From Escherichia coli (GTDB taxonomy: Bacteria; Pseudomonadota; Gammaproteobacteria; Enterobacterales; Enterobacteriaceae): a stretch of 64,000 bases of DNA. The stretch is from assembly GCF_013315695.1 (NCBI RefSeq), contig NZ_CP054353.1; one strand, given 5' to 3'. Numbering within the stretch: the stretch's first letter is position 1; each line of letters opens with the position of its first letter. Below are positions 1,684-58,318 of this stretch, piece by piece. A program made the position numbers and the translations under genes. The notes under the pieces were generated by a model. It made no database searches, was not told where the DNA came from, and saw nothing but the letters and a program-made list of their open reading frames with translations.

Positions 1684-4128
1684 TTACACCTTTTCAACCT
1701 GAACAAGGTTTGTATGTGACGGATTCCCCTTAGCGAGAGGAGACGGACGTTGAGTGGTCAGTACGTTGATACAACCGCCCTTATCGACACGTTTTGTATC
1801 CGGGTCATACCAGGCACCTTCACCCAGTGCGACCACACCCGGCATCATTCGTGGCGTCACTTTCGCCTCAATATGAACCTCACCACGATCGTTAAAAATC
1901 CTGACTTTATCGCCGTTGTTGATACCGCGTTTTTGCGCATCAAGCGGGTTGATCCACATTTCCTGACGGCAAGCTGCTTTCAGCACATCAACGTTGCCGT
2001 AAGTTGAGTGAACGCGAGATTTATAGTGGAAACCCGTAAGCTGCAGCGGATACTGTTTGTTCAGCGGATCCTGATAACTTTCAAAGCCCGGCGTGTAGAT
2101 CGGCAGTGGATCGATCACATCACCTTCTGGCAATTCCCAGGTCGCGGCAATGTCAGCCAGCGCCTGCGAATAAATCTCAATTTTCCCCGATGGCGTGGTC
2201 AGTGGATTTGCCTGCGGATCTTCACGGAAAGCTTTATAAGCAACGTGATGCCCTTGTGGGTCGCGCTTTTTAAAGATCCCCTGCTTACGGAACTCTTCAA
2301 ACGTTGGCAGTTCAGGAATCGCTTCCCGCGACTGGGCATACAGATGCCGCATCCACTCTTCCTGGGTACGGCCCTCAGTAAACTGTTGCTCAACGCCAAG
2401 ACGTTTTGCCAGTTCGCTGGTCATTTCATAGATGGTCTTACATTCAAAGCGTGGTTTAATCACCTGATCGTTGAAAATCACGTAAGACATATTCCCGCAG
2501 GATGCATCCAGCGCAAAGTCCATCTGTTCGGAAGCGGTGCAGTCAGGCAGCAGGATGTCAGCGTATTTCGCCGATGAGGTCATGTGGCAGTCGATAACCA
2601 CAATCAGCTCGCACTTCTTATCATCCTGAAGGATTTCATGGGTACGGTTGATTTCAGAATGCTGATTAATCAGGCAGTTACCGGCATAGTTCCAGATCAT
2701 TTTGATCGGCACATCCAGCTTATCTTTCCCGCGCACACCATCACGCAGCGCTGTCATTTCCGGGCCACGTTCAATGGCATCGGTCCACATAAACATCGAA
2801 ATGCTGGTCTGGATCGGGTTTTCGAGGGTCGGCATACGGACAAACGGTAAGCTGTATGAACCTTCACGCGCGCCGCTGTTGCCTCCGTTAATACCAACGT
2901 TACCGGTCAGAATCGCCAGCATCGAGATAGCACGGGTTGCGATTTCACCGTTAGCGTGACGCTGCGGGCCCCATCCCTGGCTGATAAACGCCGGTTTGGT
3001 ACTACCGATTTCACGAGCCAATTTGATGATTTTGTCTGCCGGAACACCAGTGATTTGCGAGGCCCATTCCGGCGTTTTAGCCACGCCATCTGGCCCTTCA
3101 CCCAGAATATAAGCTTTATAGTGACCATTTTTCGGCGCACTGGCTGGCAGTGTTTTCTCGTCGTAGCCAACGCAATATTTATCGAGGAATGCCTGATCCA
3201 CCAGGTTTTCGGTGATCATGACATACGCCAGACCGTTAACCAGTGCGGCATCTGTTCCCGGACGAATAGGGATCCACTCATCTTCGCGCCCGGCACCGGT
3301 GTCGGTATAGCGCGGATCGATGATGATCATGCGAGCATTAGATTTCTGGCGCGCCTGTTCAAGATAGTAAGTCACCCCACCGCCACTCATTCGCGTTTCG
3401 CCAGGGTTATTACCAAACAGCACTACCAGTTTACTGTTTTCGATATCCGACGGGCTGTTACCATCTGCCCAGCCGCCGTAGGTATAGTTCAAACCTTCCG
3501 CAATTTGCGCGGAAGAGTAGTCACCGTAATGGTTCAGATAACCGCCGCAGCAGTTCATCAGGCGAGCGACCAGGGTATTTCCCGGCGGCCAGGAGCGGGT
3601 CATGGTGCCGCCCAGCGTACCGGTACCATAGTTCAGATAGATAGACTCGTTGCCGTACTCTTTGATCAGGCGCTGCATATTGGTCGCGATGATGTCGTAG
3701 GCTTCTTCCCAGCTAATGCGCTCGAATTTGCCTTCACCGCGCGCCCCGACTCGTTTCATCGGATATTTCAGGCGGTCCGGATTGTAGACACGGCGACGCA
3801 TGGAACGCCCACGCAGACAGGCGCGCACCTGGTGCAGGCCGTCATAGTTGTCATCGCCGGTATTATCCGTTTCAACATATTTAATTTCACCGTCCACAAC
3901 GTGCATACGTAGCGGGCAGCGGCTACCACAGTTAACTGTACAGGCGCTCCAGATTACCTTTTCGTCTGACTTTGCCGGAAGGGCACTATCAACAGCGTGC
4001 GCAATCCGACTAAAAGGTAATGTTAATGCGCTGCTGGCCATTGCCAGGCCGCCGATCGCTGTCGTTTTTACCAAACCACGGCGACTCACCTCAGCAGCCA
4101 ATACCGCATCAGGGATTTTCGTTTTCAT
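1684..4128 (-). CDS. dmsA: DMSO reductase molybdopterin catalytic subunit with Tat signal
   Basis: 814 aa. N-terminal twin-arginine leader (SRRGLVKTTAIGGLAMASSALTLPFSRIAHA) and a molybdopterin oxidoreductase fold. Confidence 0.97.
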   Translation of the reverse strand: MKTKIPDAVLAAEVSRRGLVKTTAIGGLAMASSALTLPFSRIAHAVDSALPAKSDEKVIWSACTVNCGSRCPLRMHVVDGEIKYVETDNTGDDNYDGLHQVRACLRGRSMRRRVYNPDRLKYPMKRVGARGEGKFERISWEEAYDIIATNMQRLIKEYGNESIYLNYGTGTLGGTMTRSWPPGNTLVARLMNCCGGYLNHYGDYSSAQIAEGLNYTYGGWADGNSPSDIENSKLVVLFGNNPGETRMSGGGVTYYLEQARQKSNARMIIIDPRYTDTGAGREDEWIPIRPGTDAALVNGLAYVMITENLVDQAFLDKYCVGYDEKTLPASAPKNGHYKAYILGEGPDGVAKTPEWASQITGVPADKIIKLAREIGSTKPAFISQGWGPQRHANGEIATRAISMLAILTGNVGINGGNSGAREGSYSLPFVRMPTLENPIQTSISMFMWTDAIERGPEMTALRDGVRGKDKLDVPIKMIWNYAGNCLINQHSEINRTHEILQDDKKCELIVVIDCHMTSSAKYADILLPDCTASEQMDFALDASCGNMSYVIFNDQVIKPRFECKTIYEMTSELAKRLGVEQQFTEGRTQEEWMRHLYAQSREAIPELPTFEEFRKQGIFKKRDPQGHHVAYKAFREDPQANPLTTPSGKIEIYSQALADIAATWELPEGDVIDPLPIYTPGFESYQDPLNKQYPLQLTGFHYKSRVHSTYGNVDVLKAACRQEMWINPLDAQKRGINNGDKVRIFNDRGEVHIEAKVTPRMMPGVVALGEGAWYDPDTKRVDKGGCINVLTTQRPSPLAKGNPSHTNLVQVEKV

Positions 4129-4298
4129 AATGGCTCACTCAAGCTTGCTCACGATTGATTCCAGTAACAAACCGTATTGTGTAATTATTTCTATAGCAGG
4201 TCGCTATATAGGATTGTATATATCGAATAATTTGAAAATCAAAGAGATAGGTAGATTTTCACTCGAAAGTAGTATTACGTGTAAGTGAGGAGTAATTA

Positions 4299-4312
4299 TT
4301 GTTCGGTATCAA
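4299..4312. promoter_or_regulatory. FNR box of the dmsA promoter
   Basis: The minus strand reads TTGATaccgAACAA (TTGAT-N4-ATCAA consensus). It is centred ~177 nt upstream of the dmsA ATG, consistent with the FNR-activated dmsA promoter. Confidence 0.6.
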
Positions 4313-4322
4313 AGGGAGACAA

Positions 4323-4338
4323 AAAAAGCGCCCGCAGG
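4323..4338. repeat. attL core (aaaaagcgcccgcagg)
   Basis: The identical 16-mer is found at 43150-43165. The right copy retains the full serS terminator hairpin. Confidence 0.75.
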
Positions 4339-4427
4339 AGATTTAACACACCTTACTCCCCTTGATGATTTACTTATTTTTCAATGACTAAATCAAAACA
4401 AGGGGAGCAAATTAACGCAAATTACAA

Positions 4428-5435
4428 CTAGTCAATGGACAGTTTATGGACACTATCAGCCAGCGGATTAAAGCTAATCGCATCCTGTAAAAAGTCCGGT
4501 GAAAAATGCGCATACGTCATCGTTTGTTGAATCGTGGCGTGCCCAAGGATTCGCTGTAACGTAACGATATTTCCGCCGTTCATCATGAAATGCGTGGCGA
4601 ACGTGTGACGCATAACGTGAGTCGCCTGACCTTTGGGTAAATCCGGTTTCACCTCCTGAAGGATATCCCGAAAACGGATGTAATCAGCCTGGTACAATAG
4701 CCCGGTTTTTCGGGTTTTTATCAACGAAAGCACCGTATCAGAAACAGGAACCGCGCGGGATTTTCCATTCTTTGTGTTAAAGAACATTACGCGGTTACCA
4801 ACGATATGCTCACCACGTAAGCCAGCTGCTTCCCCCCACCTTGCGCCAGTGGAAAGACACAGAACAGCAACACGACGCGCATCCCCCTCGAGTCGTTCAA
4901 GCAGCCGATCAATCTCATCATCTGAAAGAAAGGCCATTTCTGTATTCCTGACCTTGAGCTTACGTATTCCACGCACCGGGTTTTCGTTATGGAAAACCTC
5001 CGCATCAATCAACGCAGTAAACATTGCAGACAAGGCGCACAAATCACGATTAACACTGGAGGGCATTAATCCGGCCTGTAATTTGTCTGAACGATACCCG
5101 AGCATAAACTTTCGCGTCATCTCACTGGCGCGGGGGTCCCTCATCTCACGGTTTATTTTTTCCAGCCTGACCCTGTAAGTATCCCCGTAAGGCTGATTCC
5201 GGCCATCAAGCACCCACCAGGCATCTATCAGTTCGGATAACCGACGCTGATCAGCTGGCTTGGCCTGCCACGGTTTATCGTGGAAATTCTGCAAAACATA
5301 CCTTTCAAACTCCTGTGCCTTTGACTTCAGGGTAAAAATCTTACGGATCCGCTTTCCTTCCGTCCCTTGCGGTCTTACATCAACCTTATAACGCCCGTCT
5401 TTGAGTTGCTTAATCGACATGATTAGCCCCTCCAA
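4428..5435 (-). CDS. int: Tyrosine integrase, P2/186 Int family
   Basis: 335 aa. The C-terminal catalytic region HVMRHTFATHFMMNGGNIVTLQRILGHATIQQTMTYAH matches the P2/186 Int signature (R..HxxR..Y). Confidence 0.93.
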   Translation of the reverse strand: MEGLIMSIKQLKDGRYKVDVRPQGTEGKRIRKIFTLKSKAQEFERYVLQNFHDKPWQAKPADQRRLSELIDAWWVLDGRNQPYGDTYRVRLEKINREMRDPRASEMTRKFMLGYRSDKLQAGLMPSSVNRDLCALSAMFTALIDAEVFHNENPVRGIRKLKVRNTEMAFLSDDEIDRLLERLEGDARRVAVLCLSTGARWGEAAGLRGEHIVGNRVMFFNTKNGKSRAVPVSDTVLSLIKTRKTGLLYQADYIRFRDILQEVKPDLPKGQATHVMRHTFATHFMMNGGNIVTLQRILGHATIQQTMTYAHFSPDFLQDAISFNPLADSVHKLSID

Positions 5436-5489: not shown

Positions 5490-5831
5490 TTAGCCAGCAT
5501 TGCGACGAGATCGGGGTGATTTTTGGGTAATGCCGATTGAAACCTGATCGCCCTCCGACTGAATGGAGCCATCAAGAGAGAGAGCCGGAGCTATCTGACC
5601 GGCAGCAGGCATTGTCTTATCTTTTATTAGCCACATCATGTATTTTTCAAACCGATCAACTTGGAGAACCATCTCAACAATTTTGGCTCTGGCGCTTTTT
5701 TGCCCTGATTCATAGTTCCTTATGGCAGCTAAAGACAACCCCGTAATATCCGCAAATTCCTTTTGCGTTAGCCCTTCAGCCTTGCGTATTTGACGTAGCT
5801 TTTTTGCATAGTCTATTGACAAGATAACCAT
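5490..5831 (-). CDS. CI-type immunity repressor (XRE-family HTH)
   Basis: 113 aa with HTH LTQKEFADITGLSLAAIRNYESG. Located between int and the divergent early operon. Confidence 0.8.
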   Translation of the reverse strand: MVILSIDYAKKLRQIRKAEGLTQKEFADITGLSLAAIRNYESGQKSARAKIVEMVLQVDRFEKYMMWLIKDKTMPAAGQIAPALSLDGSIQSEGDQVSIGITQKSPRSRRNAG

Positions 5832-7416: not shown

Positions 7417-7761
7417 ATGAAGAAACCGGGAAATTTTTCACAGCAGAATTTTCGAACAAGTGCCGAACGCCACGTTGCACGCCAGCACTTCCGCAAAAAT
7501 AGTGCGACCACAACCACTGAAATCCATGCCACACCAGACGGTCACCCGGTAAAACAAACCGGCAAGCACACCTGGACGATTGGCGACACTGGCATCGTTA
7601 TTCACAAAAGTTTTCGCAGCCCTGTTACTGGCAGATTTAATTTCACCCTGACTCGCGGGGATGATTACTTCGGACAGGACTTCACATTTTTTGAAGCCTT
7701 AAGAACGGCAGACAGATTAATCAGCGGCCTGCGTTTTCAATATCCGGGAAGCAAGCACTGA
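7417..7761 (+). CDS. Hypothetical early protein (114 aa)
   Basis: Internal ATG (MKKPGNF...) with an aggga SD 7 nt upstream, within ORF 7360..7761. Confidence 0.5.
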   Translation: MKKPGNFSQQNFRTSAERHVARQHFRKNSATTTTEIHATPDGHPVKQTGKHTWTIGDTGIVIHKSFRSPVTGRFNFTLTRGDDYFGQDFTFFEALRTADRLISGLRFQYPGSKH

Positions 7762-8357: not shown

Positions 8358-8588
8358 ATGAGAACAGCCGAATCACCCGGCAGAAAAATAACCGCCAGAC
8401 CAGCTAACCATCATGCACATATCAGCATTGCCGCAAGAAAAGCCGAGCGTGCGCATATCTGCGAATTGCTGCATGACCTGGTTAACACAGCGAGAGAGAA
8501 GCACACCTCCCCGGAGGAAACCTGTTCATCCATTGAACGACTGATTGCAATACTCGCCAACCCAGACGAACTGAAGGGGTGCGCATAA
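8358..8588 (+). CDS. Hypothetical early protein (76 aa)
   Basis: ATG with SD caggag. Its stop overlaps the next start (TAATG). Confidence 0.55.
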   Translation: MRTAESPGRKITARPANHHAHISIAARKAERAHICELLHDLVNTAREKHTSPEETCSSIERLIAILANPDELKGCA

Positions 8589-9169
8589 TGAACCATCTCA
8601 TGATTGACACCGAAACACTGGGTAACGGACCGGACGCAGCCATATTCACGATTGGGGCGGTGTTTTTCGACCCGTTCACCGGAAAGCTGGGCAAGCAGTT
8701 TGAGAAATTCATCGACCCGGTGGATTCAGAACGCAACGGCGGAACCGTCAATGCAGCCACCGCTGTATGGTGGGCCGGACAATCCGTGGAAGCCAGAGCC
8801 TGCCTGCGCAACGCAGATGGAACAGAGCTGGCAGCAGTGACCGAATTTCTGGCGTTCATTTCACGCAATATGCATGACGAAAGCCCGGGCAATTCACTGA
8901 ACATATGGTGTAAGGGCGCATCCTTCGATTTCCCGATCCTGAAATCCGCCATAACACGCACAGCCGGAGAAAAAAGCATCCCCTGGTGCTACTGGAACGA
9001 GCGCTGTATGCGCCCGCTTATCGCCATGGCTGAATCAACTGGATGGAAAATGCCAGGCAGATCAGGCAAAGAGACCATTGCTCACACCGCGCTGGGCGAC
9101 GCCGTTTACCAGGCAAAGGTCGTGTCAGAAATCTGGCAGCGCTTCACAACACCATTCCTGAACATATGA
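8588..9169 (+). CDS. DnaQ/DEDD-like 3'-5' exonuclease
   Basis: MNHLMIDTETLGN... (DxE exo I motif) and a C-terminal HTALGDAVYQA (exo III H-x4-D). Confidence 0.75.
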   Translation: MNHLMIDTETLGNGPDAAIFTIGAVFFDPFTGKLGKQFEKFIDPVDSERNGGTVNAATAVWWAGQSVEARACLRNADGTELAAVTEFLAFISRNMHDESPGNSLNIWCKGASFDFPILKSAITRTAGEKSIPWCYWNERCMRPLIAMAESTGWKMPGRSGKETIAHTALGDAVYQAKVVSEIWQRFTTPFLNI

Positions 9170-10375: not shown

Positions 10376-10726
10376 ATGGCAGTGATTTATATCGCCGGTC
10401 CCATGACCGGATGCAAAGACCACAACAGGACGGCATTTTGCGTGGAGGACCTGAAACTTCGGTGCGCCGGAAACATCGTTCTTAATCCTGCCGTACTGCC
10501 TGACGGATTAAGCCAGCAGCAGTACATGAGTATTTGTATTCCGATGCTCATGTGCGCCGATGCCATTTACTTACTGGATGGATGGGAAGAGTCCGCTGGC
10601 GCACGGGCTGAGTACGCAATGGCGCTCAAACTGAACATGCATGTGTCATTCCCGGAAAACCGGGCAGCCGGCGAAACCGTCGCGCAGCTGCTTCACAAAT
10701 CAAAAGCCGCACAGGCGACTGAGTAA
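10376..10726 (+). CDS. DUF4406-like (nucleoside 2-deoxyribosyltransferase-fold) protein
   Basis: MAVIYIAGPMTG...DAIYLLDGWEESAGARAEYAMA pattern is typical of this phage family. Confidence 0.6.
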   Translation: MAVIYIAGPMTGCKDHNRTAFCVEDLKLRCAGNIVLNPAVLPDGLSQQQYMSICIPMLMCADAIYLLDGWEESAGARAEYAMALKLNMHVSFPENRAAGETVAQLLHKSKAAQATE

Positions 10727-11164
10727 CCGACCGGAGATCGAAACATGATTGCGCGCAGAGCTACCAACCGTCTCACAGGCTTTATTCCAGGCAAGGTTGA
10801 TCATGCACTCCATCACGGGGCTGTCACTTTCCTCAACAAAGGAGAGGCGCGCAATCATGCATTCCGGGGTGAGCATGTGGCGCTGGCTAATCAGTCTTTG
10901 ATAGCTAAGCGCCTGCCATTCAGCCTTTTCAGCTCTGATAGAAAGAGAGGAAGCCATGACCTGCCACACCAGAAAGAGCACCACACTGGCGAAAACAAAC
11001 GTTGCGCTGTCGCAAAAAATGAATGCGGCAACAATCGCAAGGAAAGCGCTAATCCTCAGAACCAAGGAAGCGCGACGGTGGAGAAGGCTTGTCATGTGTT
11101 CAAGCCAGTAGCTGTACCACAGGTCAAAAAGAATTTCGTAATCAGAAGGGAGCTTATCACTCAT
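10700..11164 (-). CDS. Reverse-oriented 2-TM membrane protein (154 aa)
   Basis: ATG (MSDKLPSDYEIL...) with a ggggtg SD. Hydrophobic helices ISAFLAIVAAFIF and FVFASVVLFLVWQVMA. Convergent, with a 27-nt overlap on the preceding gene. Confidence 0.55.
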   Translation of the reverse strand: MSDKLPSDYEILFDLWYSYWLEHMTSLLHRRASLVLRISAFLAIVAAFIFCDSATFVFASVVLFLVWQVMASSLSIRAEKAEWQALSYQRLISQRHMLTPECMIARLSFVEESDSPVMECMINLAWNKACETVGSSARNHVSISGRLLSRLCGF

Positions 11165-11348
11165 CAGAAACACCCCGCGTATGCAGACAATCACCAGTTG
11201 CCAGGTGATATTAATTCGCAACATTCTAACCACATCAGCACGCAACACAAAAACCGCTTGCCAGCGCTCGTCGTGTCAGGTTACATTTCCGCTGCACCTC
11301 ATAAAACGGGTGCCGGGTTTCGCAGCCTGCTGACAACCAAAGCGCACA

Positions 11349-11368
11349 ACCGCGCCAGCGGTTTTTTT
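11349..11368 (+). terminator. Terminator-like hairpin plus T7 (copy 2 at 12178-12197)
   Basis: accgc-gcca-gcggt followed by ttttttt. It is nested inside a longer cgcacaa/ttgtgcg stem. Confidence 0.3.
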
Positions 11369-11380
11369 GTGCGTACTGTA

Positions 11381-11409
11381 TTGCCACGTCTTTTTCGCGT
11401 CAGAATTAT
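11381..11409 (+). promoter_or_regulatory. Sigma70-like promoter TTGCCA-17-AATTAT (copy 2 at 12210-12238)
   Basis: 5/6 match at -35, 17-nt spacer, 4/6 match at -10. It fires into the structured element. Confidence 0.35.
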
Positions 11410-11485
11410 GGCGGGGCGTACGGGGCCGACTTCGGTCGGGCCGGGTTCTTTGCTAGCCGGTACTGCGAACCTCGTACGTCTCGCC
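11410..11485 (+). ncRNA. Candidate structured RNA element (three-way junction), copy 1
   Basis: A 13-bp closing stem ggcggggcgtacg/cgtacgtctcgcc (2 G-U pairs) encloses a UUCG-tetraloop hairpin (ggccgac-ttcg-gtcgggcc) and a second hairpin (gggttc...gaacct). No convincing ORF. Confidence 0.3.
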
Positions 11486-11547
11486 ACCCACAGTTTCGCA
11501 GCTCTGGATGGTGAGTTTTCACAACTTACTAGCAAAGAGGCCACACC

Positions 11548-11769
11548 ATGGCAAACCGCAAGCAACAGCGCGCCCGCGCTGAGCGTCTTCACATCCGCAG
11601 CGAAATCAACCGCAGACTTTTCCGCGCAACACGCGTCGCGCAAATCATGCATATCAACATGCTGCATGAGCGCACGCACGCACTATCAAACCGTTACTGC
11701 GCTGCTGTCTTCAGCTATCTCGCCGAAGATCTGGCAGAACTGCAAAGCCTCATCAACCAGCACCGATAA
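11548..11769 (+). CDS. Hypothetical basic helical protein (73 aa), copy 1
   Basis: MANRKQQRARAERLHIRSEINRR..., SD agagg. Confidence 0.6.
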   Translation: MANRKQQRARAERLHIRSEINRRLFRATRVAQIMHINMLHERTHALSNRYCAAVFSYLAEDLAELQSLINQHR

Positions 11770-11837
11770 ACCACATCCGGAAGCTATCCCACACCTGCAC
11801 GCGGGAGGCTTCCGCACGTCTGTTACCGGAGGTTCTC

Positions 11838-12008
11838 ATGAAGAGCGTTAAGGGACTTTCAGATATTCAGGACTTCTTTAACTGGATGTGGGCGGTGGAT
11901 CCCCTGCTGGCTTCCCGCCTGAACAACTGGCACGACTATTACCGCCGCGCCTGTAAACAGGCTGCCCGCAGCGTCACCACATACGGGGCTTTCTCCTTCA
12001 CCGTTGAC
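11838..12008 (+). pseudogene. 5' fragment (57 codons) of the 138-aa gene, truncated at the duplication joint
   Basis: Identical to the start of 12667..13083 up to ...TTYG(A/D)FSFTV, then it runs into the repeated non-coding sequence. Confidence 0.7.
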
Positions 12009-12238
12009 TATGCAGACAATCACCAGTTGCCAGGTGATATTAATTCGCAACATTCTAACCACATCAGCACGCAACACAAAAACCGCTTGCCAGCGCTCGT
12101 CGTGTCGGGTTACATTTCCGCTGCACCTCATAAAACGGGTGCCGGGTTTCGCAGCCTGCCGACTAGCAAAGCGCACAACCGCGCCAGCGGTTTTTTTGTG
12201 CGTACTGTATTGCCACGTCTTTTTCGCGTCAGAATTAT

Positions 12239-12314
12239 GGCGGGGCGTACGGGGCCGACTTCGGTCGGGCCGGGTTCTTTGCTAGCCGGTACTGCGAACC
12301 TCGTACGTCTCGCC
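12239..12314 (+). ncRNA. Candidate structured RNA element, copy 2
   Basis: Identical to 11410-11485 (offset 829). Confidence 0.3.
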
Positions 12315-12376
12315 ACCCACAGTTTCGCAGCTCTGGATGGTGAGTTTTCACAACTTACTAGCAAAGAGGCCACACC

Positions 12377-12598
12377 ATGGCAAACCGCAAGCAACAGCGC
12401 GCCCGCGCTGAGCGTCTTCACATCCGCAGCGAAATCAACCGCAGACTTTTCCGCGCAACACGCGTCGCGCAAATCATGCATATCAACATGCTGCATGAGC
12501 GCACGCACGCACTATCAAACCGTTACTGCGCTGCTGTCTTCAGCTATCTCGCCGAAGATCTGGCAGAACTGCAAAGCCTCATCAACCAGCACCGATAA
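12377..12598 (+). CDS. Hypothetical basic helical protein (73 aa), copy 2
   Basis: Identical to 11548..11769. Confidence 0.6.
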   Translation: MANRKQQRARAERLHIRSEINRRLFRATRVAQIMHINMLHERTHALSNRYCAAVFSYLAEDLAELQSLINQHR

Positions 12599-12666
12599 AC
12601 CACATCCGGAAGCTATCCCACACCTGCACGCGGGAGGCTTCCGCACGTCTGTTACCGGAGGTTCTC

Positions 12667-13083
12667 ATGAAGAGCGTTAAGGGACTTTCAGATATTCAGG
12701 ACTTCTTTAACTGGATGTGGGCGGTGGATCCCCTGCTGGCTTCCCGCCTGAACAACTGGCACGACTATTACCGCCGCGCCTGTAAACAGGCTGCCCGCAG
12801 CGTCACCACATACGGGGATTTCTCCTTCACCGTGGACGGTCGTTACCGCGTGGACGTGAAAGGTGATGGTGATGGACTGGGTTTATTTCACATCAACGGC
12901 ACCGACAGTACCGCCATCAGCTGGTCGTCATCAGAGATGGCGCTGGTTCTGGAAATGACAACCCACAGCGTGGCCGTGAAAGGTATATACACCGCAGAAG
13001 GTTTTATCGGCGAATACCAGCGCCTTCTCGTGCTGTACCGCGCGGCGTTTCAGGTGGCAACTGCCGGGGAGTGCGACGCATGA
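12667..13083 (+). CDS. Hypothetical early protein (138 aa), intact copy
   Basis: SD ggaggt. The stop overlaps the gpA start (ATGA). Confidence 0.65.
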   Translation: MKSVKGLSDIQDFFNWMWAVDPLLASRLNNWHDYYRRACKQAARSVTTYGDFSFTVDGRYRVDVKGDGDGLGLFHINGTDSTAISWSSSEMALVLEMTTHSVAVKGIYTAEGFIGEYQRLLVLYRAAFQVATAGECDA

Positions 13084-15593
13084 GCGACCATAACGCACAA
13101 CTGGCGTACCCGTGGAACGCCCCGCTACCGGTTATCGATCCTGAAACGTTCGGCAGAGCACAGCCAACCGCATTACGCCAGGCCATTCAGAGCTACATCA
13201 ACGAGGACATTCGCATTGATGCCAGACTGGATGAAGAAACCGTCGCCTTTCTGACAACCACAGACGAAGGGAAGCGAATTAATTCGCACCTTCACCACAA
13301 CGAAGAGCGTCGGATCAGACTGGAAAAACTGGCGCGGCACAAACGCGAGAATCCGCCCACGGTGGTATCGGAAGCCATGGCAGAACTTCGCGCCCTGCCC
13401 TCGTTTCTTGGCAACGCGCTCATTCGTGATCTGGCGCGTTTAAACCGCAAACAGCAAAGCGCCCGCCATGAAGGCGTGAAAAACAACAATACACACGTGG
13501 CTGATAACTTTGTTCGCCGTGGACTGCGCACACGCCTGAAACGCATCGAACAGGTGAATGAATGCTTCGCCACGACGGCATTCAAAGCCACCGCAGCACG
13601 CCATCGCCTTGATGAATTACTCATGCTGCCACAACTCAACCGTGATCAAATTCAGCGCCTTGCCACACTAACGGCGGCGGCATTTTCCACCGAACTGGAA
13701 CGCATATGTGATGAAGTTACTGAGCGGACAGGAAAAGGCGACGATAACCTGTTTACCTGGTTGCTGACTTACCAGCAGCTGGCGCGCATGGCAATAAAAC
13801 TGGGCGTGAACCCACCATACTGGCCGTCACTCGAGATCAGACGTGACCGCCGCACGGCACCAGACCCTGAACTGGTACCGGGCGCGGTAATGCGTATCAC
13901 CTGCGCCACCTGGTGGAACAACCAGCTGCGCCACCTCGCTGATCTCTGGCGGGAGGAATTACTGCGTGCCGCCGGAAGAGTATCGCGCAAGGCATCCCCC
14001 TACATCAGCCATGAGTCACTCCAGGAATTCCGGGAGAAACGCCAGCGCACCCGTGATTTTCTCAAAAGCTGGGACATTGAAAACGAAGACGGTGAACGCC
14101 TGAGCCTGGAGGACGTGTACTGGTCAGGGCTGGGGAATCCGCGCAACCGCCGCAACGAGATGATGGCCTGCGTCAGAGGGATGGAACAGGTCGCCGAATC
14201 GCGTGGTGACTCCGCGTTCTTCGTGACAGTGACCTGCCCTTCCCGCTTTCACAGCGTAAACGAGGACGGCAGCCTGAACCCGAAATACAACGGTGCCACC
14301 GTGCGCGATGCCAGTGATTATCTGGTTTACGACGTCTTTGCAGCTGCAAGAAAAAAACTCAACAAAGAAGGCCTGAGCTGGTACGGGGTGCGCACCGTTG
14401 AGCCACACCATGACGGCACACCGCACTGGCACATGCTGGTATTCACCGCCCCGGACAATGAAGAACGCATCATTGAAATCATGCGTGACGCAGCAATCAA
14501 ATCAGATCGCGCAGAACTGGGGAATGATATTTCTCCGCGCTTCAAGTGCGAAAAAATCGACCCGGCAAAAGGCACACCGGCAAGCTACATCGCAACCTAT
14601 ATTGGCAAGAACCTGGACGCCAGCACCTTTCACGACAATGACCCGAAAACCGGCAAACCTTACGCCGATAAAGAATCGGGAAAAACCATGGCGGAAACCG
14701 TGGAAAACGCCATTGCCTGGGCGAGTCTCCACCGCATCCGGCAGTTCCAGTTCTTCGGTATCCCGCCCCGCCAGGTATGGCGTGAACTCCGCCGCCTTGC
14801 CGGACAAATGGAGCGTAACCCCGCATCACCGAAGCGCCTGGACCATGACGACATTGACGCCATTCTGGCCGCCGCTGACGTGGGGTGTTTTGCCACCTAC
14901 ATCAACCGTCAGGGCGGCGTGCTCATTCCACGCAACCTGTACCTGATCCGCACCGCATACGAAACCGCAGATGAGGCCAACGACTACGGCGAATTCCCGC
15001 AGCGCATCTACGGAATTTGTGCCCCGTCGCTCGGCGAGCGCTACACCATCTGCACCCATCCGGACGAGTGGAAACTGGTCAGAAAAGAAGCGAAAGCCGA
15101 CAACAGCACGGACGAGGATTTTGACGTTGGGGGCGGCTTCGCCGCACCTTGGACTCGTGGCAATAACTGTCGCCATGATGAAAAAACAGACACCGAAGAG
15201 GGTAAAAACCCACCACCGGAAACCAGGAAAGAACAAAAACTGGTCGTCCCGGAAGGTGATTTGGGCGAGTGGTTAAGGTCACTGACCCCCACAGAGCGAA
15301 AACAACTCACCAGGCAGCTGAAAGATGCGCCATCTGACACAAAAACCGTGAAAACCGGCGGCCCCACCACGCCCGATGACGTCATACATGTGCGTACCGC
15401 ATTGCCGCTGGCTGACGTCACCACCACCGTGATCAAGTCGGCACTGAGCACGACGGGCGAGGAGCTGCACAGTGGCGCGGCACTTTCCGTACACAGAGGT
15501 GCACGCGTTCGCCTGCCTGACGGGCGGATTGTGCACTGGGATGAGAAATCACGAAGCCTGGTGGCAGCAGATCAACCGGAGGTGAACCCATGA
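13080..15593 (+). CDS. gpA: Rolling-circle replication initiator endonuclease, P2 gpA family
   Basis: Motifs AYPWNAP, VEPHHDGTPHWHMLVF (HUH) and YIATYIGKN (catalytic Tyr pair) as in P2 A. Start MSDHNAQ is coupled to the upstream stop. Confidence 0.93.
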   Translation: MSDHNAQLAYPWNAPLPVIDPETFGRAQPTALRQAIQSYINEDIRIDARLDEETVAFLTTTDEGKRINSHLHHNEERRIRLEKLARHKRENPPTVVSEAMAELRALPSFLGNALIRDLARLNRKQQSARHEGVKNNNTHVADNFVRRGLRTRLKRIEQVNECFATTAFKATAARHRLDELLMLPQLNRDQIQRLATLTAAAFSTELERICDEVTERTGKGDDNLFTWLLTYQQLARMAIKLGVNPPYWPSLEIRRDRRTAPDPELVPGAVMRITCATWWNNQLRHLADLWREELLRAAGRVSRKASPYISHESLQEFREKRQRTRDFLKSWDIENEDGERLSLEDVYWSGLGNPRNRRNEMMACVRGMEQVAESRGDSAFFVTVTCPSRFHSVNEDGSLNPKYNGATVRDASDYLVYDVFAAARKKLNKEGLSWYGVRTVEPHHDGTPHWHMLVFTAPDNEERIIEIMRDAAIKSDRAELGNDISPRFKCEKIDPAKGTPASYIATYIGKNLDASTFHDNDPKTGKPYADKESGKTMAETVENAIAWASLHRIRQFQFFGIPPRQVWRELRRLAGQMERNPASPKRLDHDDIDAILAAADVGCFATYINRQGGVLIPRNLYLIRTAYETADEANDYGEFPQRIYGICAPSLGERYTICTHPDEWKLVRKEAKADNSTDEDFDVGGGFAAPWTRGNNCRHDEKTDTEEGKNPPPETRKEQKLVVPEGDLGEWLRSLTPTERKQLTRQLKDAPSDTKTVKTGGPTTPDDVIHVRTALPLADVTTTVIKSALSTTGEELHSGAALSVHRGARVRLPDGRIVHWDEKSRSLVAADQPEVNP

Positions 15594-58100: not shown

Positions 58101-58188
58101 GGTGAGGTGTCCGAGTGGCTGAAGGAGCACGCCTGGAAAGTGTGTATACGGCAACGTATCGGGGGTTCGAATCCCCCCCTCACCGCCA
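58101..58188 (+). tRNA. serW: tRNA-Ser (anticodon GGA)
   Basis: GGTGAGGTGTCCGAGTGGCTGAAGGAGCACGCCTGGAAAGTGTG...GGTTCGAATCCCCCCCTCACCGCCA. It has a long variable arm, a T-loop and a CCA end. Confidence 0.97.
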
Positions 58189-58230: not shown

Positions 58231-58318
58231 CATTTTATCTGCCTGTACGGCAGTGAACGGTATAAAAATCGAGTTTTTCTTTCGGTTGGCTTTCTAAGCT
58301 GCCTGTACGGCAGTGAAC
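58231..58318 (-). CRISPR. Orphan type I-F mini-array: 2 repeats, 1 spacer
   Basis: Minus-strand repeat GTTCACTGCCGTACAGGCAGCTTAGAAA is perfect at 58291-58318. The copy at 58231-58258 is degenerate in its last 8 nt. The spacer is 32 nt (58259-58290). No cas genes in the window. Confidence 0.8.

Follow-up and report, generated by a model that had tools for sequence, protein, structure and literature searches.

The window analysed here is a 64,000-nucleotide (nt) stretch of Escherichia coli DNA, and all coordinates are given relative to its start. The element at 11409-11486 on the plus strand is very probably the gene for an antisense "immunity" RNA of the C4/CI class which silences the anti-repressor gene downstream of it. 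Its relatives are c4 of phages P1 and P7, CI of the satellite phage P4 and STnc1160 of the prophage Gifsy-1, and it is a typical member of a known, mechanistically characterised family, with the known partner RNA, IsrK, as its immediate neighbour. The data establish the family membership, the structure, the complementarities to flanking sites and their co-evolution, the overlap of one such site (b2) with a Shine-Dalgarno sequence, an epsilon-family first gene and a P2-type context. An earlier description of the locus made from the letters alone (the sequence-only reading) had proposed a functional structured RNA rather than spacer DNA, which is borne out by the Rfam match, the fold and the covariation described below. 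It had been unable to assign the element to a known family, a failure which reflects only a lack of tools.

The Rfam scan which that reading had proposed was run on the whole window and names both RNAs. The C4 antisense RNA model RF01695 matched 11404-11491 and 12233-12320 with 82.8 bits each, nearly twice the gathering score of 45, and both matches covered model positions 1-87 of 87; the C4 of phage P88 scores 80.5 bits with the same model. The hairpin upstream of the element belongs to an isrK-like RNA (RF01394). The minimum free energy structure of the C4 element (-47.7 kcal/mol, z = -4.8, with 0 of 200 shuffles folding equally well) is the Rfam consensus, with a closing stem, two hairpins and an unpaired 3' junction strand. 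A closing stem around a UUCG-capped hairpin and a second hairpin had been described before and is present, but the stem is 17 base pairs (bp) long, not 13 (11409-11425 paired with 11470-11486), which gives a stem-bounded length of 78 nt. The UUCG hairpin (11426-11439) and hairpin 2 (11440-11461) have 5 bp each. A transfer RNA (tRNA)-like element was considered and rejected, as ARAGORN found no tRNA or tRNA-like cloverleaf at C4, its only call in the window being a tRNA-Ser at 58101-58188, and there was no Rfam tRNA match at 11404-11491.

Two recognition segments were located in this fold. The loop b' is UCUUUGCUAG (11447-11456) in hairpin 2, with a core in the loop, CUUUGCUAG, which is complementary to the motif CTAGCAAAG. 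The strand a' is CUGCGAA (11463-11469) and lies in the 3' junction between hairpin 2 and the closing stem. The RNAs and the target sites are as follows.

11409-11486, plus strand: C4/CI-type antisense RNA, copy 1, from Rfam, fold, covariation and complementarity
12238-12315, plus strand: C4/CI-type antisense RNA, copy 2, from Rfam, identical to copy 1, with a2 at 12322-12331 and b2 at 12358-12367
11493-11502, plus strand: downstream site a2 (GTTTCGCAGC), in which TTCGCAG pairs with a'; covaries in 55 homologues
11529-11538, plus strand: downstream site b2 (CTAGCAAAGA), 11529-11540 as a feature with the Shine-Dalgarno sequence, from a complement search; covaries with b'
11318-11325, plus strand: upstream site a1, copy 1 (TTTCGCAG), in the isrK hairpin-2 loop
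11334-11342, plus strand: upstream b1 position, copy 1 (CAACCAAAG), of a type foreign to its own C4
12163-12171, plus strand: upstream site b1, copy 2 (CTAGCAAAG), a 9-nt exact complement of b'
11294-11368, plus strand: isrK-like (P4 seqA-like) small RNA, copy 1, RF01394, 65.9 bits against a gathering score of 50
12123-12197, plus strand: isrK-like RNA, copy 2, RF01394, 64.3 bits, with cognate a1 at 12147-12154 and b1 at 12163-12171
11258-11287, plus strand: isrK promoter TTGCCA-18-TACATT, from a promoter scan, with a second copy at 12087-12116

The complement search placed exact 7-nt complements of a', TTCGCAG, at 11319-11325 and 11495-11501. These lie within the motif GTTTCGCAGC which the sequence-only reading had noted on both sides of the element (11317-11326 and 11493-11502); the repeats are there as described and are meaningful, being antisense target sites for the C4 RNA. 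The exact complement of b' extends over 10 nt at b2 and over 9 nt at b1 of copy 2, and b2 overlaps the Shine-Dalgarno sequence AAGAGG (11535-11540), 7 nt ahead of the ATG at 11548. The 9-mer CTAGCAAAG occurs five times in the window against 0.34 expected, always inside the module, and no further trans target for it was found in the window outside the module. For TTTCGCAGC the count was five against 1.2 expected, with four of the five inside the two module copies and the extra one, at 7612, within chance expectation. Separately, C4 GAACCUC (11467-11473) is complementary to GAGGUUC in the Shine-Dalgarno region of a 138-amino-acid (aa) open reading frame (ORF) further downstream (11829-11835 and 12658-12664), a match which may be coincidental, the segment lying partly in the closing stem.

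The comparative set consisted of 82 related loci fetched via the 73-aa protein encoded directly after C4, with an IMG/VR scan as the main source. The 311-nt isrK-C4-leader region was kept in all 82 at 83-99% identity and gave 55 distinct sequences, 31 of them distinct within C4. All 27 C4 pairs were paired in every one of these 31 sequences (100%), against 33-46% in slid controls. Four pairs carried double, compensatory changes, among them 11412:11483, which is CG in 13 sequences and UA in 12. Across the 55 distinct sequences the RNA scaffold was conserved, and variation was concentrated in six patches, a1, b1, b', a', a2 and b2, which changed together. The longest pairing of each recognition segment with its own sites and with those of other types was as follows.

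b'-b2: cognate 9.5, non-cognate 5.4
a'-a2: cognate 7.4, non-cognate 4.4
b'-b1: cognate 7.9, non-cognate 4.6
a'-a1: cognate 7.25, non-cognate 4.2

The downstream sites matched their own C4 in 55 of 55 sequences and the upstream a1/b1 sites in 52 of 55. Compensatory change in homologues was thus found both within the stems and between the loops and their targets, and this loop-target covariation, a comparative signal, is in our view the strongest evidence here for functional pairings. We counted 6 a-types and about 15 b-types in 24 combinations among the 55 sequences, and the position of b2 on the Shine-Dalgarno sequence was identical in all homologues. One homologue (L082, IMGVR_UViG_2582580934_000004, approximately 236-340) has a 17-nt insertion in C4 which duplicates hairpin 2 and gives two different b' loops, UUCUUUGCUCU and UUCUUGUGUAG; this C4 may be a dual-specificity RNA. 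A genome-contig scan with the 73-aa protein returned only two loci, one on a probably contaminated "Vagococcus" contig (L005, NZ_JBQPOM010000071.1, "Vagococcus sp. WN89Y"). It carries an enterobacterial P2-like module with 88.7% nucleotide identity, and its Gram-positive label likely reflects contamination or mis-binning.

Downstream of C4 the plus strand carries three genes.

11548-11769, plus strand: 73-aa gene, P4 epsilon homologue, first gene after C4, with a second copy at 12377-12598
12667-13083, plus strand: 138-aa gene, phrog_3237, its end overlapping the start of gene A, with a truncated 5' copy at 11838-12008
13071-15593, plus strand: P2-type replication gene A, rolling-circle endonuclease (Pfam Phage_GPA, E 2e-108)

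The 73-aa protein falls in phrog_3688 and matched the Pfam family PF25738 "Derepression" (E 1.6e-6; 28.2 bits, with the cut-off at 27); its identity to P4 epsilon is 32% (E 8e-8). By homology it would inactivate a P2 C-type repressor. NCBIfam gave no matches for the 73-aa and 138-aa proteins or for a 154-aa protein encoded upstream, PHROGs offered only families of unknown function for the module proteins, and a PDB sequence search with the 73-aa protein returned nothing meaningful (best E 0.56). The terminator scan found no plus-strand intrinsic terminator between C4 copy 2 and gene A, which is the last gene of the putative C4-controlled transcription unit.

Read against the characterised members of the family, the module would work in the following way. 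The isrK promoter at 11258-11287 would make a short, terminated isrK-like RNA, constitutively in the lysogen, and read-through of the terminator would give a longer transcript from which the ~78-nt C4 (11409-11486) would be cut, with RNase P acting at its 5' end as in P1 and P4. The folded C4 would expose the b' loop and the a' strand for pairing with a2 (11493-11502) and b2 (11529-11538) on the mRNA immediately downstream. Pairing at b2 would cover the ribosome-binding site of the 73-aa epsilon-like anti-repressor gene and block its translation, and polarity or premature termination would shut the 138-aa gene and gene A, leaving the prophage quiet. The a1/b1 sites in the isrK RNA would be a second pairing partner, serving either as a cis target, as in P4 seqA, or as a trans decoy which would titrate C4 and switch the anti-repressor on, as IsrK does in Gifsy-1. 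From the roles listed in the sequence-only reading, regulator and decoy come nearest to the evidence, the element being an antisense regulator and the upstream isrK RNA a possible decoy.

Several observations weigh against this account and have to be admitted. Duplex energies were calculated for the single locus; only 0.4% of shuffled targets do as well as the leader with b', but 12% equal the leader with a', which is not significant singly, and copy-1 isrK against b' was at chance. The pairing claim therefore rests on the comparative data and not on the single-locus energies. The b1 position of copy-1 isrK mismatches its own C4, so that upstream pairing would be dispensable in at least this copy. 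The hexamer AATTAT directly 5' of C4 is conserved and leaves room for an internal promoter. Finally, every functional step at the locus rests on homology, from processing, the translational block and polarity to what the 73-aa protein acts on and which way IsrK works.

The P1/P7 c4 antisense RNA system, reportedly described by Citron and Schuster in 1990, as cited in PMC3632133, is of the same RNA family, RF01695 being named after c4. The immI order in P1 and P7 is P51 - a1 b1 - c4 RNA - a2 b2 - icd - ant. In P1 an RNA of ~77 nt, processed from a longer transcript, has two exposed segments, and the a/b sites are duplicated on both sides of it; b2 covers the ribosome-binding site of the small first ORF icd (73 aa), polarity acts on the anti-repressor, and c4 forms a secondary immunity layer beside a protein repressor. 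The window shares the ~77-nt class, the flanking a/b sites and the position of b2 on the ribosome-binding site of a 73-aa first ORF. It differs in that this first gene is of the epsilon family and not Icd, without an Ant homologue, in that the downstream cargo includes a replication gene, and in having a terminated IsrK-type RNA upstream, as do P4 and Gifsy-1. The anti-immunity region of the phage-plasmid N15, said to have been worked out by Ravin et al. in 1999, as cited in PMC3632133, reportedly encodes a small processed RNA controlling an antirepressor; there too the second immunity layer is an RNA of this structural class, which gates an anti-repressor operon, although the replicon type and the anti-repressor genes are others.

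The P4 genome has both Rfam matches on its minus strand, isrK at 8615-8692 (60.8 bits) and C4 at 8420-8507 (74.9 bits), in the same order and orientation as in the window. Its layout, seqA/IsrK - CI (seqB) - seqC - ... - epsilon - alpha, matches the window module, with an epsilon-family gene downstream and then a replication gene. Recognition likewise goes through the hairpin-2 loop and the 3' junction strand, whose targets lie upstream (the IsrK hairpin-2 loop and linker) and downstream: GTGAGAA is found in the IsrK hairpin-2 loop and again just after CI, and TTCACAGG occurs in the IsrK linker and a second time on the AGGAGG that belongs to the first downstream ORF. In 80 P4-like satellites we found the same covarying hypervariable patches, with 3 a-types and 8 b-types. 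The differences are also clear. P4 is a satellite with the alpha primase, whereas the phage in the window is of the helper type, a complete P2-family member that has P2-type C, Cox and gene A; the isrK-C4 spacing is ~110 nt in P4 against 40 nt; epsilon has 95 aa against 73 aa, and the window's epsilon homologue is the first gene after C4; the recognition sequences differ; and P4 ORF151 is unrelated to the 138-aa gene, with no similarity between the two proteins. A P88-like a' type, UGUGGAAA, is the mirror image of the P4-like a' UUUCCAC and so equals the P4-like target GTGGAAA (L088-L167 compared with L004-L085). From these sequences, a helper C4 and a satellite CI of mirror-image types could pair, or the match could be due to chance in a small sequence space.

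Barquist et al. described IsrK and C4 as structural homologues of P4 seqA and CI RNA, under the name "IsrK-C4 immunity system", and noted related systems in P1, P7, N15 and lambdoid prophages (PMC3632133). A literature search for this module in phage P88 or other P2-like phages found nothing specific. In Gifsy-1, Hershko-Shalev et al. showed that the isrK promoter gives a short terminated IsrK and, by read-through, the downstream mRNA, and that the C4 homologue STnc1160, a stable processed RNA complementary to IsrK, is lost on deletion of that promoter (PMC4825925). The Gifsy-1 order is isrK - STnc1160/orf45 - anrP and, as proposed for the window, an anti-repressor gene is under translational control (PMC4825925). 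Gifsy-1 is, however, a lambdoid prophage with an unrelated anti-repressor, AnrP, and its control runs via a small upstream ORF and translational coupling, whereas b2 in the window lies directly on the Shine-Dalgarno sequence of the 73-aa gene.

The Gifsy-1 work also suggests a different emphasis, in which the module is chiefly an induction switch and the short IsrK a trans-acting anti-antisense activator which opens the leader or titrates C4, as in IsrK-orf45-anrP. We regard this as a serious possibility, though not a probable one. The match of a1/b1 to the cognate C4 in 52 of 55 distinct sequences indicates selection on IsrK-C4 pairing, conservation of the isrK terminator and promoter is high, and in Gifsy-1 over-expression of IsrK raised anrP translation more than 100-fold and induced the prophage (PMC4825925). 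On the other hand, the P4 seqA region is needed for establishing immunity and the S. Typhi IsrK-like RNA is required for growth (PMC3632133), which suggests a role in repression, and no small upstream ORF like orf45 was evident at the window module. Such a switch would in any case be the other face of the same circuit and is compatible with silencing of the anti-repressor by C4.

The origin of the C4 transcript bears on a further claim of the sequence-only reading, that the element has its own promoter. The TTGCCA on which this was based does occur three times, but two of the positions need shifting by one, from 11199 to 11198 and from 11257 to 11258. The one at 11258 is the -35 of the isrK promoter, for which the predicted start, ~11294, is the first base of the RF01394 match; this -35 was invariant in 55 of 55 distinct homologues and the -10 in 53 of 55, despite a heavily variable spacer. 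The distance from isrK to C4 is 40 nt, with 35 nt between the Rfam matches. The terminator-like hairpin noted upstream of C4, CGCACAA/CCGC-GCCA-GCGG/T-run/TTGTGCG, is present at 11343-11373 and holds the intrinsic terminator of the isrK-like RNA (11348-11368), the last of its three hairpins, which the terminator scan also detects as a hairpin at 11348-11363 followed by a T run. The outer stem CGCACAA/UUGUGCG (11343-11349 with 11367-11373) encloses this terminator, so that the U-tract is sequestered. The Rfam isrK structure lacks this stem; P4 (L086, ~8625-8660, minus strand) has GCGACA/UGUCGC in the same place, so that the pairing is kept with a different sequence, and the outer stem may be a read-through or processing conformer.

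Could C4 instead be an independent small-RNA gene, transcribed from its own sigma-70 promoter and not processed from isrK read-through? The promoter-like sequence TTGCCA-17-AATTAT does exist at 11381-11409, where it scores 9/12 in the consensus scan, and AATTAT is kept in 53 of 55 homologues. The -35 at 11381, however, is TTGCCA in only 25 of 55, with TCGCCA in 25 and TCGTCA in 3, and the position of AATTAT is that of uuuuAuGG, the 5' flank conserved in the Rfam C4 model. The proposed -10 ends at 11409, the first base of the C4 closing stem. A private promoter is not supported, because a normal start 5-9 nt past this base (~11414-11418) would remove the 5' strand of the closing stem, including 11412, which covaries with 11483. 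The RNA of P4 and, as is well established, that of P1 arise by processing of a longer transcript. We consider an own promoter improbable. Since the isrK promoter is conserved, the proximal -35 is not and deletion of the isrK promoter removes the Gifsy-1 homologue (PMC4825925), we conclude that isrK read-through transcripts are the most likely source from which C4 is cut, as in P4, P1 and Gifsy-1.

The element had also been reported as present twice, the second time at +829. This copy exists, but it gives no independent support, being half of an 829-bp tandem duplication.

11180-12008, plus strand: duplication copy 1, with the isrK promoter, chimeric isrK, C4, the 73-aa gene and the 5' third of the 138-aa gene
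12009-12837, plus strand: duplication copy 2, parental-like, continuous with the intact 138-aa gene and gene A

The two copies are directly adjacent, 829 bp each, and differ at six positions (11278, 11331, 11335, 11337, 11989 and 12005; 99.3% identical), and the right end of the duplication truncates the first copy of the 138-aa gene. Three of the differences are clustered in the b1 site and turn copy-1 b1 into CAACCAAAG, which is cognate to the C4 loops of two other loci (L014 and L032). At all six sites copy 2 equals the single-copy relative STEC17-183 (L002), which has no junction, and five further differences from this relative are common to both copies. The near identity and adjacency of the copies could point to an assembly artefact or a recent, meaningless duplication without bearing on function, and in the majority of the 1277 E. 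coli genomes that carry the module a prophage has a single copy, nearly all full-length matches having the single-copy length of 1572 bp. Against this, the junction, CACCGTTGAC joined to TATGCAGACA, is identical in the complete genome of E. coli G6/7 (L001, NZ_CP060061.1), for which reason an assembly artefact was rejected, and E. coli G8 has the same uninterrupted 2401-bp match. The two G6/7 modules (3551-3861 and 4380-4690) are of different, internally consistent specificity types; copy 2 is of the window type and copy 1 is wholly different, with a' UGUGGAAA and b' CUUCGUUUG. The difference of G6/7 copy 1 implies that the duplication is real and old enough for divergence by recombination. 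The artefact or meaningless-duplication explanation is very unlikely, although the duplication may lack selective meaning. By these comparisons we consider the duplication to be real, rarely found and inherited, with recombination having patched it afterwards.

That the region is protein-coding and the fold incidental is hardly credible. There are open frames, one of 126 aa on the minus strand (11299-11679) and one of 368 aa on the plus strand (10745-11851), and RefSeq relatives carry coding sequence (CDS) annotations, "hypothetical proteins" of the annotation pipeline PGAP, on the minus strand across isrK/C4. Coding was nevertheless rejected, on the ground that the a1, b' and a2 patches of homologues contain indels (1, 2 and 17 nt) which shift any frame. 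The substitutions, moreover, are compensatory within stems and between loops and targets and not codon-patterned, and the 368-aa ORF runs over the 73-aa gene, the RNAs and a minus-strand gene that is real. A gene caller might report this ORF and a 280-aa plus-strand ORF (11838-12680), in which the truncated 138-aa gene continues past the duplication junction; both are artefacts. The minus-strand CDSs over isrK/C4 were seen at 3600-3968 in L001, 3001-3648 in L002 and 5033-5221 in L003 (P88), and the RefSeq/GenBank annotations of these three have no non-coding RNA features there; to judge from the homologues, the CDSs are probably spurious.

The host element is a P2-family (P88/Xuanwuvirus-like) E. 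coli prophage. At its left end are genes for an integrase and for a P2 C-type repressor (5490-5831) which shares 48% identity with P2 C, and a Cox-like gene. The prophage of a near-identical relative has a full P2-type morphogenesis set and is flanked by dmsA and serS. The module was found in 9 of 50,697 phage records, which were P88/Xuanwuvirus-like coliphages and one related Citrobacter phage, and in 1277 of 5426 complete E. coli genomes, where it is usually unannotated. Between the early-operon genes and the isrK promoter lies the 154-aa gene (10700-11164, minus strand; phrog_6315, with a weak DUF6239 match), and the left breakpoint of the duplication, 11180, falls a short way upstream of this gene's start codon. 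Elsewhere in the window, the small RNA STnc130 has a full-length match (4219-4353, 126 bits) between dmsA and the prophage integrase gene. The tRNA-Ser(GGA) at 58101-58188 is followed at 58231-58318 by two 28-nt type I-F CRISPR repeats (CTGCCTGTACGGCAGTGAAC core) with one spacer; Rfam scores one of them as CRISPR-DR4, and they look like a vestigial E. coli I-F array.

The system itself is already known, as a standard Rfam scan names both RNAs and the mechanism has been worked out in P1, P7, P4, N15 and Gifsy-1. The flanking motif of the sequence-only reading is now explained as an antisense target site, and the module turns out to be left unannotated by RefSeq, or under spurious CDSs, in roughly a quarter of complete E. 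coli genomes. The comparison has by-products for specialists in phage regulation which leave the classification unchanged: a large natural set of specificity variants in which loop and target covary perfectly, a helper-type phage whose epsilon homologue is probably controlled by C4, and tandem modules of chimeric or heterotypic make-up. The natural variants could serve as orthogonal RNA repressor/target pairs.

A broader interpretation can be offered only tentatively, and we think it rather less likely to hold than to fail. P88-like helper-type phages and P4-like satellites may share a homologous IsrK-C4-epsilon cassette whose two recognition loops form a rapidly recombining, combinatorial address code, and in which the epsilon homologue would be the helper's own RNA-gated anti-repressor, directed against its P2 C-type repressor. 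Tandem and chimeric modules, such as the copy-1 IsrK with its foreign b1 and the two-type tandem in G6/7, would be intermediates that create new specificities or decoy cross-talk between co-resident phages and satellites. In the published view delta is the only P4-specific gene with clear homologues in P2-like phages (PMC8628076). A shared cassette, if true, would run against this view, and would mean that P4 took its immunity and derepression cassette from a helper-type phage, or the reverse.

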